From a virus (taxonomy: Duplodnaviria > Heunggongvirae > Uroviricota > Caudoviricetes), in the IMG/VR virus record IMGVR_UViG_2531839666_000012: a DNA stretch of 37,013 nucleotides; one strand, given 5' to 3'. The notes below the pieces were generated by a model. The model saw nothing but the letters and a program-made list of their open reading frames with translations, had not been told where the DNA came from and did not search any database. The translations under genes were made by a program, and so were the position numbers. Below are positions 3,085 through 12,806 of this stretch, piece by piece (the first letter of the stretch is position 1; every line of letters begins with the position of its first letter).

Positions 3085-3160
3085 GGCCCTTTAGCTCAGT
3101 GGTGAGAGCGAGCGACTCATAATCGCCAGGTCGCTGGTTCAAATCCAGCAAGGGCCACCA
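3085..3160 (+). tRNA. tRNA-Ile2 (anticodon CAU, lysidine type; ileX/ileZ-like)
   Basis: 76 nt cloverleaf: acceptor GGCCCTT/AAGGGCC, anticodon loop CTCATAA, T-loop TTCAAAT, encoded CCA; near-identical to recalled E. coli ileX. Confidence 0.8.
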
Positions 3161-3167
3161 TCACATA

Positions 3168-3244
3168 CCGCCATTAGCTCATCGGGATAGAGCGCCAGCC
3201 TTCGAAGCTGGTTGCGCGGGGTTCGAGTCCTCGATGGCGGTCCA
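3168..3244 (+). tRNA. tRNA-Arg (anticodon UCG)
   Basis: 77 nt; acceptor CCGCCAT/ATGGCGG, anticodon stem CCAGC/GCTGG with loop CTTCGAA, T-loop TTCGAGT, encoded CCA. Confidence 0.75.
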
Positions 3245-3257
3245 TTATCTGTACACT

Positions 3258-3334
3258 GCGTTGTTAGCTCAGCCGGACAGAGCAATTGCCTTCTAAGCAA
3301 TCGGTCACTGGTTCGAATCCAGTACAACGCACCA
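3258..3334 (+). tRNA. tRNA-Arg (anticodon UCU, argU-like rare-codon tRNA)
   Basis: 77 nt; acceptor GCGTTGT/ACAACGC, anticodon stem ATTGC/GCAAT with loop CTTCTAA, T-loop TTCGAAT, encoded CCA. Confidence 0.8.
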
Positions 3335-4404: not shown

Positions 4405-4660
4405 TGCCCCGAAAATTTTAAATGTCTCACAATTCAGACGGTTGACAGTTGTCTGATTTGCGGGGAGTTTGTTAAAAGAAACTGGCATGGTGAATCCCCC
4501 TGAGCGGAGGGGCATATCAGCGACAGGTGTTTGGTTACATCCCTTATCCTTTCTGTGCGGGTTCAGGTGCTGATACTGAACTCACCGGGAGGCACCCGGC
4601 ACCATGCGCATGATGATACAGATACGCAGCGTCAGCCCCTCTCCGGAGGGGCTTTTCTGT
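4405..4660 (+). repeat. Hairpin-rich noncoding element, copy A (candidate sRNA gene)
   Basis: Shares with copy B a CA-rich box CTCACAATTCAG, TTGACA/TTGAAG -35-like hexamer, GC hairpin CCCCCTGAGCGGAGGGG, box CTGAACTCACCGGGAGGCACCCGGCA and terminator hairpin AGCCCCTCtccgGAGGGGCT+TTTT (4634-4660). Confidence 0.5.
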
Positions 4661-4892
4661 GCCGGATACATCACAGTTTCTGGAACCTTGGGTACTACAG
4701 TATCAGTCAGGGTGCTATATTTTCAGATGTGATGAAAGCCTGTCAGCAGGCAGGGCGTATCGGAAATGACCCAGTAGAGAAAACGTTGACTCAGATACCG
4801 GTGCTGAGTTACCGGGAAACCGGCATCACATGACCGCTATCCTTCCAGGCCCGTCCGCTCCGGTGGGCCTTTTTACTGCAGAAAACAGGTTC

Positions 4893-5148
4893 CCCGTTAA
4901 ATGCTATGTTGCTCACAATTCAGTCAGTTGAAGGTTGTCTTCCCGACTGAGAATTTGTTAAAAAATTTCTGCATGATGAATCCCCCTGTGCGGAGGGGCG
5001 GCTGGTGTACGGTATGGTCTCTGATGATCGTTAGCGAGAATGACGCGGGTTCGGTGGCACCGGGCTGAACTCACCGGGAGGCACCCGGCATCATGCAATG
5101 AACGGTACATAGCGCTACTCCAGCCCCTCTCCGGAGGGGCTTTCTTAT
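4893..5148 (+). repeat. Hairpin-rich noncoding element, copy B (candidate sRNA gene)
   Basis: Paralogue of copy A about 486 bp downstream with the same conserved boxes and terminator hairpin (5122-5148); a minus-strand terminator (GCCCGCAT/ATGCGGGC after an A-run) follows at 5152-5181. Confidence 0.5.
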
Positions 5149-5378
5149 GGATAAAAAAAGCCCGCATGGTGAGATGCGGGCAGCAAGGAATAAACAACAA
5201 AACGTGAAGTAATCAATTTTTCAGCTGGCGAATAATACCCGACAGTAATCACTCTGCGCAACTGCGCGGCCTTTTTCGTATTGCGGGCTGTAGTCTTCCT
5301 TCTGTCATTGTCCTGTAACTTCCGGACTTCAGCCCGCCCCTTATCTGACTCACAACATTATCCCGACCGGGAGGATTC

Positions 5379-6855: not shown

Positions 6856-6909
6856 TGAATCGCCCCGGGAATCCTGGAGACTAAACTCCTTGAGAGAGAG
6901 GTAAACAGG

Positions 6910-7236
6910 ATGACTAAAAATACGCGCTTTTCCCCTGAGGTCCGTCAGCGGGCCGTTCGTATGGTTATCGAAAGCCAGAATGACTATGACTCGCAGTGGG
7001 CGGCCATCAGCTCCATCGCCCCTAAAATCGGCTGTACGCCTGAGACCCTGCGTACCTGGCTGCGTCAGTATGAGCGCGATGCCGGTGCAGGTGACGGCGG
7101 ACTGAGCACCACTGAACGTCAGCGTCTGAAGGAACTGGAGCGTGAAAACCGCGAACTGCGCCGCAGCAACGATATCCTGCGCCAGGCTTCCGCGTATTTT
7201 GCGAAGGCGGAGTTCGACCGCCTGTGGAAAAAATAG
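6910..7236 (+). CDS. IS3-family transposase OrfA (HTH/leucine zipper)
   Basis: 108 aa, [19 protein letters not shown]... matches recalled IS629/IS1203 OrfA; ends at an A6 slippery run (7228-7233). Confidence 0.85.
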
Positions 7237-8123
7237 CGCCTCTGGTGGATACCCTGCGTGGTGCGCACGGGGTCGGACCGGTATGCCACGAGCTGGCTGT
7301 CGCCCCGTCAACGTATTACCGGCATCGTGCGCATCAACGGCATCCGGATAAACGCAGTCAGCGGGCACAGCGTGATGACCTGCTGAAGCCGGAGATACAG
7401 CGCGTGTACGATGAAAACCACAGCGTGTACGGTGTGCGCAAGGTCTGGCGCCAGTTGTTGCGTGAGGGGGTGACCGTGGCCAGGTGCACAGTAGAACGGC
7501 TGATGAAGGTGATGGGGCTTGCCGGTGTGCGCCGGGGTAAAAAGGTCCGCACCACAGTCAGCCGGAAAGAAGCCGCTGCGGGTGACCGGGTGAACCGCCA
7601 GTTCGTGGCAGAACGCCCCGACCAGCTGTGGGTGGCTGACTTCACGTATGTGAGCACCTGGCAGGGCTTCGCTTACGTGGCGTTCATCATCGATGTGTTC
7701 GCCGGCGTCATTGTGGGCTGGCGGGTCTCATCGTCGATGAAAACGACGTTCGTGCTGGATGCACTGGAGCAGGCGCTGTGGGCCCGTCGCCCGTCGGGCA
7801 CCATCCATCACTCAGATAAGGGGTCACAATATGTGTCGCTGGCATACACTCAGCGGCTTAAGGATGCAGAGTTGCTGGCGTCAACCGGCAGCACAGGCGA
7901 CTCATATGACAACGCGATGGCGGAGAGCATCAACGGACTTTATAAAGCGGAGGTGATACATCGTAAGAGCTGGAAAAACCGCGCCGAAGTGGAACTGGCC
8001 ACACTGACGTGGGTGGACTGGTACAATAACCGACGGTTGCTGGAACGACTGGGTCATATCCCGCCGGCAGAAGCGGAAAAGGCATATTACGCTTCCATCG
8101 GAAATGGTGGTCTGGCAGCCTGA
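7224..8123 (+). CDS. IS3-family transposase OrfB (DDE catalytic domain)
   Basis: 299 aa in the -1 frame relative to orfA, overlapping its 3' end; likely made as an OrfAB fusion by programmed -1 frameshift. Confidence 0.85.
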
Positions 8124-8165
8124 GTTCACAGATAAAACACTCTCCCGGAAAACCGGGGCGGTTCA

Positions 8166-8650
8166 CAGACAAGGCAAAACTGTTACTGGAAAAAGGCGGG
8201 GAAATTGCTGTCCGGTTTAAAATCCCTGAAAACGTCAATCTTGAAACAACCAGAAACAAGTATGCCTTTGGTTTGTACTGGCGAATAGCGGAATGGCCGG
8301 GTGAGGGTGGTGAAGGCTATCTGAGTTCTTTCTTTGTCCAGACAGATAAAGCCAGTATTGATGTTGCATACCATCATACAGGTAATCAACAAAAAGAACT
8401 TGGCACGTTTGGCGCATTCGACCATGACTGGCATACGCTTGCATTTAAATTTAAGGGCAGTAACAGCATTAATGTTACTCCGGTGTTTGATGATGTGGAT
8501 GGACAGGCGTTTGACCTGGTGAAATGGGCCAATACTGCTAATGAACTCAACAGGTTTGTCATTACGGATATTACAGGTACTGCTGAAACTTACCCTGTAC
8601 TTATTGATACGGTGGAAGTTAAAGCAAACAAAGCTGGAGCAGCCGCATAA
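8166..8650 (+). pseudogene. nanS-p: nanS-p C-terminal fragment displaced by the IS
   Basis: Frame is open from 8168 to the stop at 8650 and, after removing the IS plus one CAG copy, is in frame with the 5379 ORF (offset 1313 = 2 mod 3). Confidence 0.65.
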
Positions 8651-8779
8651 TTGCTAAAAAAAGCCGCCAGCGGCAGGAATGGAAGCTGGCGGCTGGTAAA
8701 ACGACCATGATGACACCGAAGTCTGCGGTGTTTTTCTACAAAAATAAGTAAATCATGTCAACTATCACGGTGAGAAACC

Positions 8780-8962
8780 ATGACATTTCTGAACCAGTTA
8801 ATGCTGTACTTCTGTACGGCGGTCTGTGTGCTGTATCTTCTTTCGGGTGGGTACAGGGCAGTGCGCGATTTCTGGCGCAGGCAGATTGATAAAAGGGCCG
8901 CTGAGAAAATCAGCGCCAGTCAGTCAGCCGGAAGCAAACCCGAAGAGCCCATTACTCCTTAA
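8780..8962 (+). CDS. Hypothetical small membrane protein (60 aa)
   Basis: ORF with a hydrophobic N-terminal segment (LMLYFCTAVCVLYLLSGG); no family recognised. Confidence 0.35.
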   Translation: MTFLNQLMLYFCTAVCVLYLLSGGYRAVRDFWRRQIDKRAAEKISASQSAGSKPEEPITP

Positions 8963-8987
8963 TAACCCCTTTCAGCGAGAAAATCCT

Positions 8988-9233
8988 ATGTCAGAAGTAA
9001 AACCCCTGGTCACTGCTGAAGCAGTGAAGGAAGTCCTGCGCTCTGAAGAAGTCCTGAGCGCACTGAAACAGAAACTCCGCCAGAACCTTGAGTCGCGTCT
9101 TGATGCAGAAGTGGAGGCCATTCTGGATGAACTGCTGGGCGCACCGGCTGTTCCGGAGCCGGAAGGCATTGCGGGTGACGGGAGTGCTTCAGATGGCGGT
9201 GAACCCACACCCGACAGCGACATGATGATGTAA
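8988..9233 (+). CDS. Hypothetical acidic protein (81 aa)
   Basis: ATG 8988 preceded by GAGAAAA; acidic coiled-coil-like composition; immediately upstream of the holin. Confidence 0.45.
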
Positions 9234-9309
9234 GCATGCGCAAGGGACCATCGGTGTGTGCCGGTGGTCTTTATATTGTTGTGAGCTTCCGGATTGCGGG
9301 AGACGGGGT

Positions 9310-9526
9310 ATGTACCAGATGGAAAAAAGTCACAACAGGTGTGTCATACACCACGTCAGCGGTGGGAACGGGCTACTGGTTCCTGCAGTTGCTGGACAGG
9401 GTTTCCCCGTCTCAGTGGGCGGCAATAGGCGTGCTGGGGAGTCTGCTGTTTGGTCTGCTGACGTACCTGACGAACCTGTATTTCAAGATTAAAGAAGACC
9501 GTCGTAAGGCGGCGCGGGGAGAGTAG
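9310..9526 (+). CDS. S: Phage 21 S-type pinholin (class II holin), frame-disrupted at an A6 run as sequenced
   Basis: C-terminal 60 aa ([51 protein letters not shown]) match recalled S21; dual-start ATGs at 9310 and 9319 (MYQMEK) are in the +1 frame relative to the body and join it only if the A6 run 9323-9328 is A5; the track ORF 9236-9526 is the same body with a non-homologous N-terminal extension. Confidence 0.7.
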
Positions 9527-9529
9527 ACG

Positions 9530-10171
9530 ATGAACCATGAAGAAATGAATCAGCGCTTCAGTCGTCTGGAAAATGAAATTGCTGAACTGAATAAAAAACT
9601 GTCGGTGCTGATGCCTTCTGAAGATGCAAACAAACGCTGCGATGAGCAGTTTGCGGCGTTTTACGATGATTGCATCAAAATTGCTCGCAGGACCTTTGCG
9701 AAGATTTTGCAGGAAAAGTTTTTACCGGCCGCATTGTCAGAAAAGTACTCCATTACGGTTAAAAGTGCCGGAGAGGAAGGCAATAAGCGTTATTTTATTG
9801 CGTCTGCACCGGATAAAGACCAGGAATGGGAGTGTAACCGGCCATCCTTTGTTGTATCCGGTGATGACGGGAAAATCACCATATCAGAAAATGGAAAAGT
9901 AACACCGCCATCGCACCAGCACAGTGAGACGCTCATTGAATTTGCCATTGATTACCTGAAGAACAATAAAAAACAGGGGCTGATGAAGCGCATTGGTCGC
10001 TGCATGGGATATCTGCAGCTGGCGGCAGAGATTGAAGCACTTGCCAGTGGTGCAGACAGGGATGCTGCGGTGCGGGAGGGTCTTCTTTGTGATTTCAATA
10101 CGCCACCCTTTAAGAAAGAGCCTGATGGCTGGATCCAGCCGGGGCTGACTTATCTCAAATGGCGCATATAG
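9530..10171 (+). CDS. Hypothetical protein (213 aa) inserted between holin and endolysin
   Basis: SD GGGAG upstream of ATG 9530; predicted N-terminal coiled coil; lower GC than flanking lysis genes; no family recognised. Confidence 0.6.
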   Translation: MNHEEMNQRFSRLENEIAELNKKLSVLMPSEDANKRCDEQFAAFYDDCIKIARRTFAKILQEKFLPAALSEKYSITVKSAGEEGNKRYFIASAPDKDQEWECNRPSFVVSGDDGKITISENGKVTPPSHQHSETLIEFAIDYLKNNKKQGLMKRIGRCMGYLQLAAEIEALASGADRDAAVREGLLCDFNTPPFKKEPDGWIQPGLTYLKWRI

Positions 10172-10198
10172 TAAAAGAGAAAACAATTGAGGTGAAAA

Positions 10199-10426
10199 AT
10201 GAAAAAATACGATATGACAGTTAAATCATTCCACATGGGGGATAAAAATGTTGTCGTTGTCCTTGGTATATATAATTATCAGGTTCCATCAATGCTGTTG
10301 TTCAATATTGAAATAGATATTGAACGACGGGAAGATGCTACCATTCCGTTTTATGAGGCGCTGGCTTTAAAAAAAGCAGCCTCGCTAATTCATGAAATTT
10401 CTGATGATTTAGCAGTGGCTGCTTAG
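10199..10426 (+). CDS. Hypothetical protein (75 aa)
   Basis: SD GAGGTG 6 nt upstream of ATG 10199; AT-rich; no family recognised. Confidence 0.5.
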   Translation: MKKYDMTVKSFHMGDKNVVVVLGIYNYQVPSMLLFNIEIDIERREDATIPFYEALALKKAASLIHEISDDLAVAA

Positions 10427-10430
10427 ATTT

Positions 10431-10718
10431 TTATTTCAAAAATGGCTCAGGACTGGTATTGCCAAACATGGGTCTTACCGGTGGTTGCATGAGGGTATTG
10501 ATGGCGACTTTAATCTCTGGTTTACCTGAGGTTGTGATTTTGCTCAGTTCGCTATGTAACCTGGTTTTAAGCTCATCACTGAATTTCTTGTCTCCACTTT
10601 GCTGATCCAGAATGTCAACGATGTTGTAGAACAGGAAATTGGCTGCGGTATTTATAGCTATGTTTTCGCGCTGAAGCCCCTGAATTAGTTGAAAAAGTTC
10701 ATGGTTTGATATTTCCAT
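10431..10718 (-). CDS. Hypothetical protein (95 aa), convergent with the two preceding genes
   Basis: Minus-strand ATG at 10718 with SD AAGGAG 7 nt upstream (plus-strand CTCCTT at 10725-10730); track ORF extends to 10781 but has no RBS there. Confidence 0.5.
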   Translation of the reverse strand: MEISNHELFQLIQGLQRENIAINTAANFLFYNIVDILDQQSGDKKFSDELKTRLHSELSKITTSGKPEIKVAINTLMQPPVRPMFGNTSPEPFLK

Positions 10719-10842
10719 TAAGTTCTCCTTATTGAGGTTATCAGCCATCCCTCTTTTGTTACATGTGCCAGTGCCCACCACTGGCAGGCTGAAGACTTAA
10801 CATATCCAGGGATTCGGAACCGATAAATCCTGATAAATATCC

Positions 10843-11376
10843 ATGAACACCAAAATCAAATACGGCCTGTCGGCTGCCGTTCTGGCGCTGATTGCCGCAG
10901 GTGCGCCTGCGCCTGAAATCCTCGACCAGTTTCTTGACGAAAAAGAAGGTAACCACACCACGGCATACCGTGATGGTGCGGGTATCTGGACCATCTGCCG
11001 AGGTGCCACCCGGGTGGATGGTAAGCCTGTGATTCCTGGCATGACGCTGTCGAAGGGGAAATGCGACCAGGTTAACGCCATTGAGCGTGATAAAGCGCTG
11101 GCATGGGTGGAGAAAAACATCAGAGTGCCACTGACCGAACCCCAGAAAGCGGGGATCGCGTCATTCTGTCCTTACAACATTGGCCCCGGTAAGTGTTTCC
11201 CGTCGACGTTTTATAAACGAATTAATGCAGGCGATCGCAGGGGAGCGTGTGAAGCGATTCGCTGGTGGATTAAGGACGGTGGCAGAGACTGCCGTATCCG
11301 CTCAAATAATTGTTATGGTCAGGTATCCCGTCGTGACCAGGAGAGCGCGCTGGCGTGCTGGGGTATCGACAGATAA
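10843..11376 (+). CDS. R: SAR endolysin (T4-lysozyme-type muramidase, phage 21 R-like)
   Basis: N-terminal signal-anchor-release segment KYGLSAAVLALIAAGAPAP, then catalytic-region motif EGNHTTAYRDGAGIWTICRGAT. Confidence 0.85.
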   Translation: MNTKIKYGLSAAVLALIAAGAPAPEILDQFLDEKEGNHTTAYRDGAGIWTICRGATRVDGKPVIPGMTLSKGKCDQVNAIERDKALAWVEKNIRVPLTEPQKAGIASFCPYNIGPGKCFPSTFYKRINAGDRRGACEAIRWWIKDGGRDCRIRSNNCYGQVSRRDQESALACWGIDR

Positions 11377-11465
11377 GCAGAATATTTTGCTGAAAAATGA
11401 CGTTGACTAACGCGGACGGATAACACGAAATCCTGCGAACTGGCAAAACCTAAGTGAATAAAAGT

Positions 11466-11500
11466 AAAAACCCCGTTTGTTGGCAGCAAGCGGGGTTTTG
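11466..11500. terminator. Bidirectional rho-independent terminator
   Basis: Stem CCCCGtttg/caagCGGGG flanked by an A5 run upstream and T4 downstream. Confidence 0.45.
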
Positions 11501-11731
11501 TGTTTCTGACCTTGGATAAGGCAAGGGAGAACATGGAAAAGTATAAACGAATTCTGTTGAGGTTGACTATGAAAAACGGCCTTGAACTGAAAGCGCCAGA
11601 GTAACTGATGACATCAGCAGAGCGCTGGCTTTTGCTATTAAGTGGGTGGCGGTTGGTATCGCTGTGTCTCCGATACTGTATGGGCTGGCAAAACTGGTCA
11701 TTGCGTTGAAATCGTGAAGGGAGGATTAAGC

Positions 11732-11863
11732 ATGTCAGACAAACTCATAATGCTGGCGAAGATCCTCTGTGTAATCGTCGGCATTTCATTTTCACTAATG
11801 CTGGTTGCTATTTGCTTTTCCACTGCCTGGCGCGTCTTAACTCTGTCAGGGCTGGTGGGGTGA
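11732..11863 (+). CDS. Hypothetical small membrane peptide (43 aa)
   Basis: ATG 11732 preceded by GGGAGGA; single predicted TM helix ILCVIVGISFSLMLVAICF; ends 8 nt before the methyltransferase start. Confidence 0.35.
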   Translation: MSDKLIMLAKILCVIVGISFSLMLVAICFSTAWRVLTLSGLVG

Positions 11864-11870
11864 CAGAAAC

Positions 11871-12806
11871 ATGAAATGTGTACTGTATTCCGGTGACTGT
11901 CTTGATGTTATGCCTTCATTACTACCGGGAAGTGTTGACCTGGTTTTATGTGACCCGCCGTATGGAACCATTAAAGGGCTTACACTCCGTACATGGGATA
12001 AGAGTACGACAGCATGGGACGATGCCTTAAATCCTGAAGATATTTTCACACAGTGCGAACGACTGCTGAGGGTGGGCGGTGTGCTGGTCATGTTCAGCCA
12101 GGAGCCGCATACAAGCACGATGATTACTCTGGCGGATAAAAACCTGCCGTTTTTATATCGTATGGTGTGGAAGAAGGAGCATTTCCCCAACCCGCTTTCA
12201 GTAAAAAAAGCACCTGTATCTTTATTCGAGGATATCGTTGTTTTCCGGAAAAAATATGACAGTGAGAAAAACCACCCGCTGAGGGAGTACGCCCGAAATA
12301 TCCTTTCTTTCATTGGCCACAGGACAGACAAGGAAGTTAACAAAACACTGGGGCACCGTCGGGCAGAGCATTTTTTTTGCGTGAACACACTCCAGTTTTC
12401 CCTCTGCTCACAGGATACGTATAACGAGTTAATTAAACGCTTTGGTATCGACCGTATGCCGGGTTTCATGACATATGAAGAAATGCGCAAAGTGAATTCC
12501 GGTTACGGCACTGTGGTTTTTAATCTCCCTCAGGGGAAAAAATACCGCGCAAATATTCTGGAGTACGCGCGGGAGCGGGAGCGATGGCATCCGACCCAGA
12601 AGCCAGTTGCATTACTGGAAGAGCTGATTCAGACGTACAGCAACCCTGGCGACAGGGTACTGGATTTTACTATGGGGAGTGGTTCAACAGGTGTTGCATG
12701 TATCCGGACGGGGAGACGGTTTACCGGAATAGAAAAGGATGACCGGTATTTCGCTGTTGCAAAAAAACGTCTGGAAAAAGAAAACAGTGAAATGGTGGTG
12801 ATATGA
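11871..12806 (+). CDS. DNA methyltransferase, N6_N4_Mtase (beta-class) family, inserted between R and Rz
   Basis: Motif [10 protein letters not shown] near the N-terminus and motif [10 protein letters not shown] near the C-terminus. Confidence 0.8.

Follow-up and report, generated by a model that had tools for sequence, protein, structure and literature searches.

Reverse morons have been noted in phage genomes since 2000 and, to our knowledge, have remained almost unstudied; the moron and reverse-moron genes of phages HK97 and HK022 reportedly go back to Juhala et al. 2000. In these two phages, a small forward gene and a convergent, overlapping small reverse gene are located between the late genes I and J, and their products (Gp22/Gp23 of HK97, AF069529; gp22/gp23 of HK022, AF069308) are annotated as 'moron product' and 'reverse moron product'. 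A similar annotation exists for Salmonella phage ES18, in which gp24 and gp25 are both labelled 'possible moron; function unknown'. In addition, the Qin prophage of Escherichia coli K-12 carries the gene ydfR in the order essQ-ydfR-rrrQ, with ydfR overlapping rrrQ. In 2026 it was reported that residues 1-72 of Qin YdfR bind the catalytic half of RNase E and bind RNase G, and that YdfR co-purifies with RNA (PMC13232886). Here, we analyzed a 37,013-nucleotide (nt) stretch of DNA from a virus of the Caudoviricetes (IMG/VR record IMGVR_UViG_2531839666_000012; the whole stretch is hereafter called the window), in which three small genes, A, B and C, are located between a phage-21-type holin gene and the endolysin gene. 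Judging from their sequences, B and C make up a mobile pair of moron genes that is also present in ES18 as gp24/gp25, whereas A is a resident of the slot, and C is preceded by a structured leader that is common to many unrelated small phage genes.

The three genes and the borders of the interval are as follows.

9310-9526, plus strand: class II (phage 21 S-type) pinholin gene, left border of the slot (PF04971, E = 6e-32)
9530-10171, plus strand: gene A, 213 amino acids (aa)
10199-10426, plus strand: gene B, 75 aa
10431-10718, minus strand: gene C, 95 aa; its longest open reading frame (ORF) reaches a GTG at 10781
10843-11376, plus strand: signal-arrest-release (SAR) type endolysin gene (R21/RrrQ-like), right border of the slot (PF00959, E = 2.4e-24)

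In Pfam, the two borders correspond to Phage_holin_2_1 and Phage_lysozyme. Each of the three genes is preceded by its own Shine-Dalgarno (SD) sequence, namely GGGGAGAG for A, GAGGTG for B and AAGGAG for C. The guanine-plus-cytosine (GC) content of positions 9530-10781 was 0.431, compared with 0.535 for the whole window, and only 0.4% of equal-sized windows were as low; the individual values were 0.47 for A, 0.36 for B and 0.41 for C. When the genes were compared with those of the diverged allele described below, the ratios of nonsynonymous to synonymous substitution rates (dN/dS) of A, B and C were 0.36, 0.28 and 0.19, while that of the endolysin gene was 0.035. All three are therefore genuine coding genes that evolve fast and are under purifying selection. 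No transmembrane or signal segment was predicted in any of the three proteins, whose maximum 19-residue Kyte-Doolittle values were 0.74 (A), 1.37 (B) and 1.12 (C), compared with 1.70 for the holin and 1.74 for the hydrophobic N-terminal segment of the SAR endolysin; the proteins are thus predicted to be soluble. Sequence and profile searches of the PDB with A, B and C returned nothing below E 0.1, a search of NCBIfam returned only noise, and no known toxin or antitoxin family was recognized among the three proteins in Pfam, NCBIfam or PADLOC.

Gene B encodes a stand-alone DUF1327/YdfR domain. Its match to Pfam family PF07041 (DUF1327/YdfR) scored 35.4 bits, above the cutoff of 25 (E = 1.3e-8), with residues 2-71 aligned to positions 3-72 of the 93-position model, and it also matched positions 3-72 of phrog_1085. 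The same label is given to B by RefSeq in E. coli FHI_NMBU_11, whose 2.2-kb holin-to-endolysin stretch matches that of the window. B was 24% identical to Qin YdfR. Across YdfR and the long YdfR-family proteins, its identity to the N-domain was 24-36%, which is too low for B to be a recent fragment of such a gene. A weak 5-bp hairpin with a T-run is found at the end of B (10411-10423, plus strand).

The association of B with C was found to be constant across phages. B is convergent to every C homolog except one, and in the window the stop codons of the two genes are 4 nt apart. In ES18, gp24 is an 86-aa DUF1327 protein encoded along the late operon, while gp25 is a convergently encoded protein of 95 aa whose stop codon is 4 nt away; C and gp25 are 55% identical over 95/95 residues and have the same leader. 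A diverged allele in E. coli and Escherichia albertii, in which C is 58% and B 61% identical to the genes of the window, again encodes a convergent 75-aa DUF1327 protein with a stop-to-stop gap of 4 nt. In addition, the pair separates the tape-measure gene from the next tail gene in Citrobacter portucalensis, and in viral contigs it was found between M and L, between I and J or between two unknown genes, so that five different slots of the late operon are known to carry it. In every slot B is co-oriented with the flanking genes and C is opposed to them. Over 9 lineages, in which identity falls to as little as 25-40% and the gap is 4-15 nt, the divergences of B and C are correlated (r = 0.94), and the 75-86-aa DUF1327 form is intact in ES18 and in nine lineages. 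Both in base composition, in which B and C (GC 0.36 and 0.41) differ from the window (0.535), and in position, in that the pair lies between genes that adjoin in related phages and is inserted at different sites in different phages, B and C look like morons. The co-inheritance tips the balance slightly towards a functional partnership of B and C.

The holin-endolysin interval itself is the standard accessory slot of phage-21-type lysis cassettes that is normally occupied. A spread sample of 60 E. coli records was surveyed, in which 32 places matched both the holin and the lysozyme; the gap between them was at least about 350 nt in all of these places (32/32), and the genes annotated inside it were YdfR family, DUF1327 or hypothetical protein. 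In Stx2-86, Stx2_12E129, PhiR5_1 and BP-4795, the forward gene starts about 4 nt past the holin stop codon, and a convergent small gene often comes after it. The whole arrangement of the window is present in 16 of 5,426 complete E. coli genomes, and the flanking genes in 4,349.

Gene A, whose start codon is 4 nt past the holin stop codon, matched positions 117-296 of the 296-position phrog_1085 (E = 1e-101). Over about 145 aa it shares 79-85% identity with long YdfR-family proteins, in their C-terminal part. One of these, Stx2-86 gp05 (268 aa, 'YdfR family'), begins with a DUF1327 domain, continues with a linker and ends in a region that is nearly identical to residues ~70-213 of A, the identity being 79% over gp05 residues 121-265. 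Homologs of A come almost entirely from E. coli (one is from Shigella), and they either stand alone (185-221 aa) or are fused to an N-terminal DUF1327/PF07041 domain (268-333 aa) in a highly mosaic family. The conserved C-terminal core, approximately residues 100-213 of A (about 115-145 aa in the family), contains 33 invariant aligned columns. A itself has no Pfam match, including to PF07041, and its N terminus is a helical segment in place of the DUF1327 domain; the AlphaFold2 model was poor, with a predicted local distance difference test (pLDDT) score of 52.6. On these comparisons A is a YdfR-family protein without the DUF1327 domain, that is, the C-terminal module of the long members, and the content of the slot splits into two units, the resident gene A and the portable B/C pair. 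In all six loci of the diverged allele that were read, the A homolog is cut to 166 aa by a frameshift (L008-L013; for example, L009 3495-4218).

C matched phrog_10490 and belongs to a tiny family, with 6 clusters in an index of 5.8 billion proteins and 7 representatives among 1.84 billion proteins; the scan of genome collections for its homologs used a narrow C alignment. The 95-aa start is backed by nine homologs of 93-110 aa and by the position of the SD sequence, and the C-terminal tail is conserved (...MQPPxRxxF..PEPFLK). The AlphaFold2 model of C (pLDDT 74) is a helical hairpin with helices at residues 5-40, 46-64 and 67-76; Foldseek found no relative of this model in the PDB, the single match having an E value of 8.7, and no relative of C was found in Pfam, NCBIfam or the PDB. 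A search of PADLOC-DB v2 yielded one weak and partial match for C, to the candidate PDC-S51 (E = 2.5e-5, 21.3 bits), which covers residues 3-61 (59 residues) against a model of 376 positions, and no match for A or B. No clear terminator was found for C. Its tail (residues 86-95; 10431-10460), with a consensus P-F-L/I-K/E end, may loosely resemble the C-terminal peptide of FtsZ (IPAFLRK). The C-terminal peptide of FtsZ is bound by ZipA, FtsA and MinC. Homology of C to P22 Pid was considered and rejected, as there was no sequence or profile similarity. Overall, C is a reverse moron that corresponds to ES18 gp25.

These results bear on a first-pass annotation of the same DNA, made without database searches. 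The three AT-rich ORFs that it placed between a phage-21-type holin and the endolysin are present, each with an SD sequence, and its view of them as accessory, compositionally foreign DNA was borne out by the GC content. However, it also regarded them as an insertion splitting a normally contiguous holin-endolysin pair, which does not agree with a slot that is filled in every sampled place and in Qin, and it recognized no family among the three proteins, while profile searches placed A in phrog_1085 and B in PF07041. Homology to genes of the Qin ydfR type, which it had named as evidence that would speak against its idea, was found for A and B; C had no match to PF07041. As for the suggestion that the convergent small gene could be an antagonist, C does have a specific partner in B, with which it is co-inherited. 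As first described, the finding is therefore ordinary, since the slot is routinely filled by YdfR genes and B/C are already annotated in ES18.

The 124-nt gap between C and the endolysin gene is entirely occupied by the upstream region of C, in which the following features were recognized.

10719-10842, minus strand: promoter-like region and structured 5' leader of C, filling the whole C-endolysin gap and conserved in four unrelated contexts
10799-10804, minus strand: -10-like hexamer TATGTT, at the position of a TAnnnT conserved in 94 leaders
10787-10792, minus strand: UCAGCC, at or near the predicted 5' end of the C mRNA, complementary to GGCUGA (helix P0)
10766-10786, minus strand: hairpin P1, here with an 8-bp stem and a 5-nt loop
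10734-10753, minus strand: the 20-mer GAGGGATGGCTGATAACCTC, in which GAGG and CCTC form helix P2 around the loop bearing GGCUGA

The 20-mer GAGGGATGGYTGATWAMCTC was invariant in all four leader contexts found via the C protein. It is located 15 nt upstream of the start codon of C, with the SD sequence in between, and it occurs once in the window, against an expectation of 0.01. The exact 20-mer was also found in at least 120 IMG/VR contigs. Among the matches listed, 86 distinct small proteins are encoded downstream of it, which fall into 18 groups by BLASTP and 17 after profile-profile comparison, and the downstream neighbor is on the opposite strand in 80 of the 86 leader cassettes where one was found. 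For most of these proteins, Pfam and PADLOC gave no match, and a PADLOC search with ten of the cargo proteins other than C gave nothing except one weak match to PDC-M14A. A cargo superfamily based on a helix-LPxxxR-helix pattern was considered and rejected; profile-profile comparison supported one link only, between the C family and a 97-aa family (probability 84%). The cargo families include a DUF1883 protein and, weakly, a Lar-like zinc-ribbon protein. Some phages carry two leader-bearing reverse morons (IMG/VR loci L020-L205; L083, 354-373 and 4479-4498), and in ES18 another reverse gene, gp22, located between the tape-measure gene and M, is also labelled 'possible moron' (L206, 2505-2903).

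Conservation in the collected leaders extends to the promoter-like part. The TAnnnT positions were conserved in 94 leaders (T 86%, A 97%, T 87%), and in 75 of the 92 leaders having such a hexamer it ends exactly 6 nt upstream of TCAGCC. UCAGCC was 97-100% conserved in the 57 leaders for which it was absent from the search pattern, the only changes being C-to-T and compatible with wobble pairing, and it is paired in the minimum-free-energy fold. In the 57 leaders retrieved independently of it, P1 was 95% paired, compared with 19-40% for slid partners. Compensatory changes were observed at four pairs of P1, and cells with G-U outnumbered cells with A-C (29 vs. 9), which indicates that the fold forms on the C-sense strand. 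P2 was 84% paired in 33 leaders retrieved through the hairpin only. The window leader with P0 and P1 has a folding energy of -26.1 kcal/mol (z = -2.1), and it is possible that UCAGCC:GGCUGA together with GAGG:CCUC forms a pseudoknot just upstream of the ribosome-binding site. An alternative view of P1 as a protein-binding palindrome was rejected because its sequence covaries and is not conserved. A search of Rfam 15 with the minus strand of 10719-10842 at E values up to 10 gave no meaningful match (only bxd_5, with 13.8 bits, 7 nt into the leader), and nothing in the whole window reached an Rfam gathering score.

Parts of the leader also occur without the rest. The 5' part alone precedes other, unrelated convergent genes in the holin-endolysin (S-R) slot of Shiga toxin (Stx) phages. 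More than 100 Stx and lambdoid phages have the promoter-proximal 70-80 nt immediately in front of the endolysin start (window 10767-10845; BP-4795 24263-24330, H149), and phages without a reverse gene also carry this part, overlapping the end of ydfR, where it could be a relic or an antisense promoter facing the holin.

The architecture of the interval and the family assignments are close to certain. For the explanation as a whole, in which A is resident, B/C is a moron transcribed from both sides and B is the partner of C, we estimate a probability of about 0.5. According to this explanation, A would be translated from the Q-dependent late transcript as the resident gene of the slot, while C would be transcribed leftward from its own weak sigma-70-type promoter (TATGTT), with a leader of roughly 75 nt that probably begins at UCAGCC. 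Independent leftward transcription of C is rather probable, on the strength of the conservation alone. C would then be produced whenever late transcription is off. Once late transcription is antiterminated, its read-through would run antisense across the whole C unit and oppose C while yielding A and B, so that making A and B and making C would oppose each other. B would be a protein partner of C, most likely a late-phase antagonist or modulator, and, if the analogy with Qin YdfR holds, its target may be RNase E or RNase G. That B antagonizes C in a toggle between lysogeny and lysis is a tentative proposal. Host RNA turnover is the most concrete candidate target of B by the same analogy, although RNase E in particular is a doubtful one: binding to RNase E and RNase G has been reported only for Qin YdfR and from a single source (PMC13232886), and it cannot be confidently transferred to B, which is only 24% identical to that protein. 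The element of ~125 nt as a whole might be a widely shared, previously undescribed 'expression socket' for reverse morons, coupled in the C family to a co-evolving DUF1327 gene as a two-state switch, with a C state while late transcription is off and a B state while it is on. It would combine a weak promoter with a leader in which UCAGCC pairs into a downstream hairpin loop, giving a pseudoknot beside a covarying stem-loop. The setting is that of ~17 unrelated small ORFs, mostly antisense in late operons, in more than 100 enterobacterial siphophages, and we regard this part of the scheme as no firmer than the toggle.

Several observations weigh against this explanation. A generic sigma-70 scan made no call for the putative promoter of C because its -35 element is weak, and helices P0 and P2 show almost no informative covariation. 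P22 pid, a reverse moron of the late region, is silent in lysogens and in strict lytic growth and is expressed only in the carrier state (PMC3573128); the rule that C is on when late transcription is off may for that reason be too simple, and the expression state of a reverse moron cannot be guessed. Overproduction of YdfR changed few transcripts (PMC13232886). The holin gene of this same prophage is frameshifted. E. coli FHI_NMBU_11 (NZ_CP045712) has an intact holin gene and matches the window at 100% identity over 2.2 kb except for one G, which is additional in the window at 9329 and changes the reading frame behind codon 6 (MYQMEK|), so that the lysis cassette may be nonfunctional here. The extra G reflects either a lysis-defective prophage or a sequencing error. 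The frame-corrected holin has 71 aa (MYQMEKITTG...), and in the window its transmembrane part can be read only in a 96-aa ORF that starts further upstream, at the ATG at 9236. Finally, A looks dispensable, since the diverged allele keeps B and C intact while its A homolog is frameshifted and truncated.

The partnership of B and C also has to be weighed against the possibility that they are functionally independent morons, co-inherited merely because they abut. Tight linkage would by itself make the divergences correlate; DUF1327 genes are found without C, as in Qin; in the S-R slot, at least four unrelated small genes other than C take the convergent position beside them; next to most reverse morons with the leader there is no DUF1327 gene; and a C homolog of Serratia stands without B. 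Mere linkage is therefore a serious alternative, but the retention of the pair through five insertion sites and down to 25-40% identity, in the same orientation and with a gap of 4-15 nt, is an arrangement rarely preserved in mosaic phage genomes without selection, and we consider independence improbable. A more radical view is that the region is decaying mosaic debris without function, in which A and B are the halves of a broken long ydfR gene. It would account for an A that lacks the DUF1327 domain next to a B that is nothing but that domain, in a highly mosaic family, and it fits the frameshifted A homolog of the other allele as well as the frameshifted holin and the insertion sequence (IS) of this prophage. 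Nevertheless, the low identity of B to the YdfR-type N-domains, the intact B form in ES18 and nine lineages, the dN/dS values of 0.19-0.36 and the separate SD sequences of all three genes make this view very unlikely.

Two functional readings put forward in the first-pass annotation were also assessed. A lysis-timing or lysis-control module, in which one or more of the three proteins would act on the pinholin or the SAR endolysin, for example in the manner of an antiholin or as a regulator of endolysin release, is suggested by the presence of YdfR-family genes in the S-R position of essentially every sampled phage-21-type cassette, by the start of A immediately behind the holin gene and by a ydfR mutant recovered in an envelope-integrity screen, as cited in PMC13232886. 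However, the envelope phenotype could be a polar effect on rrrQ, the three proteins lack the membrane segments of the holin and the SAR endolysin, and a lysis-specific role is unlikely for B and C, given that ES18, Citrobacter and viral contigs carry this pair in the tail-gene region; we judge this reading to be quite unlikely. Slightly less so is a toxin-antitoxin, abortive-infection or superinfection-exclusion pair with C or B as the effector and the other gene as the antidote. B and C are small, adjacent, co-inherited and horizontally mobile, C has the weak partial match to PDC-S51, and prophage morons often encode exclusion, as in the case of HK97 gp15 (PMC3594210). On the other hand, the two genes are convergent and not arranged in a co-transcribed operon of type II, neither encodes a small hydrophobic type I toxin, and apart from the PDC-S51 match no Pfam, PADLOC or structural counterpart pointed to such a system. 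Moreover, toxicity was not reported for overproduced Qin YdfR (PMC13232886), and the pair is carried by the fully viable phage ES18. A resident A next to a B/C moron pair whose members are partners is the reading that we prefer.

The surroundings of the slot contain further accessory DNA. A second accessory block (11377-12806) separates the endolysin gene, upstream of which no SD sequence is visible, from Rz; it contains a strong terminator-like hairpin (11467-11499), two tiny ORFs and a 311-aa N6/N4 DNA methyltransferase gene (11871-12806) whose stop overlaps the start of Rz (12803). In the reference prophage, two further methyltransferase genes are located upstream, near the transfer RNAs (tRNAs). 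On the other side, an IS3-family (IS629-like) element of 1,310 bp (6856-8165), flanked by a 3-bp target duplication, interrupts nanS-p (SASA sialate esterase); it is absent from the reference prophage, and Rfam places its ALIL frameshift pseudoknot at 7191-7307. The Q-to-lysis region contains three tRNA genes and the STnc100 small RNA (sRNA) family in two copies (3085-3331, 4456-4662, 4942-5152), at the position occupied by stx in Stx phages. According to a 2026 preprint, the PasA and PasC sRNA genes of pathogenic E. coli sit between the sialate esterase and the holin of such prophages, which corresponds to about 8650-9310 of the window.

The present analysis resolves what looked like a three-gene insert into a resident A and a portable B/C pair. 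It offers a testable partnership of B, a DUF1327 protein, with C at a time when the first biochemical lead for DUF1327 (RNase E/RNase G) has just appeared. It also adds a conserved structured leader that is common to many unrelated small phage genes and absent from Rfam; if functional, this leader would be a handle for finding reverse morons and the timing of their expression. The shared leader and the co-inherited pair are the parts worth following up.

Compared with known systems, the B/C pair is closest to gp24/gp25 of ES18, which differ from it in being located between the tail genes M and L, without an A-like gene, and in having annotated putative terminators on both sides, whereas the leader of the window abuts the endolysin start. 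The pairs of HK97 and HK022 resemble the window in their arrangement of a forward small gene and a convergent reverse gene within the late operon. The regions upstream of both gp23 genes also align with the putative promoter and the leader of C, in HK97 over the 5' part, the 3' half having diverged, and in HK022 with the exact 20-mer. However, their forward genes are not DUF1327 genes, a possibility that was considered for both gp22 proteins and rejected on comparison, and their reverse genes are not homologs of C. Qin YdfR and Stx2-86 gp05 share the slot between class II holin and lysozyme with the genes of the window, in which the two modules of the long YdfR proteins are separate genes, the C-terminal module coming first and DUF1327 second, and in which, unlike in Qin, a reverse gene stands between B and the endolysin gene. 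No usable literature was found on reverse morons, on HK022 srb or on ES18 gene 25, and among reverse morons of this kind we found experimental work on P22 pid only. It differs from C in its promoter, leader and insertion site and in having no DUF1327 partner. Like C, it encodes a soluble ORFan (86 aa in Pid), lies in the late region, is directed against its neighbors and has an AAGGAG SD sequence; it is transcribed from its own promoter, its product acts on a host regulator, and it has an expression state of its own (PMC3573128).

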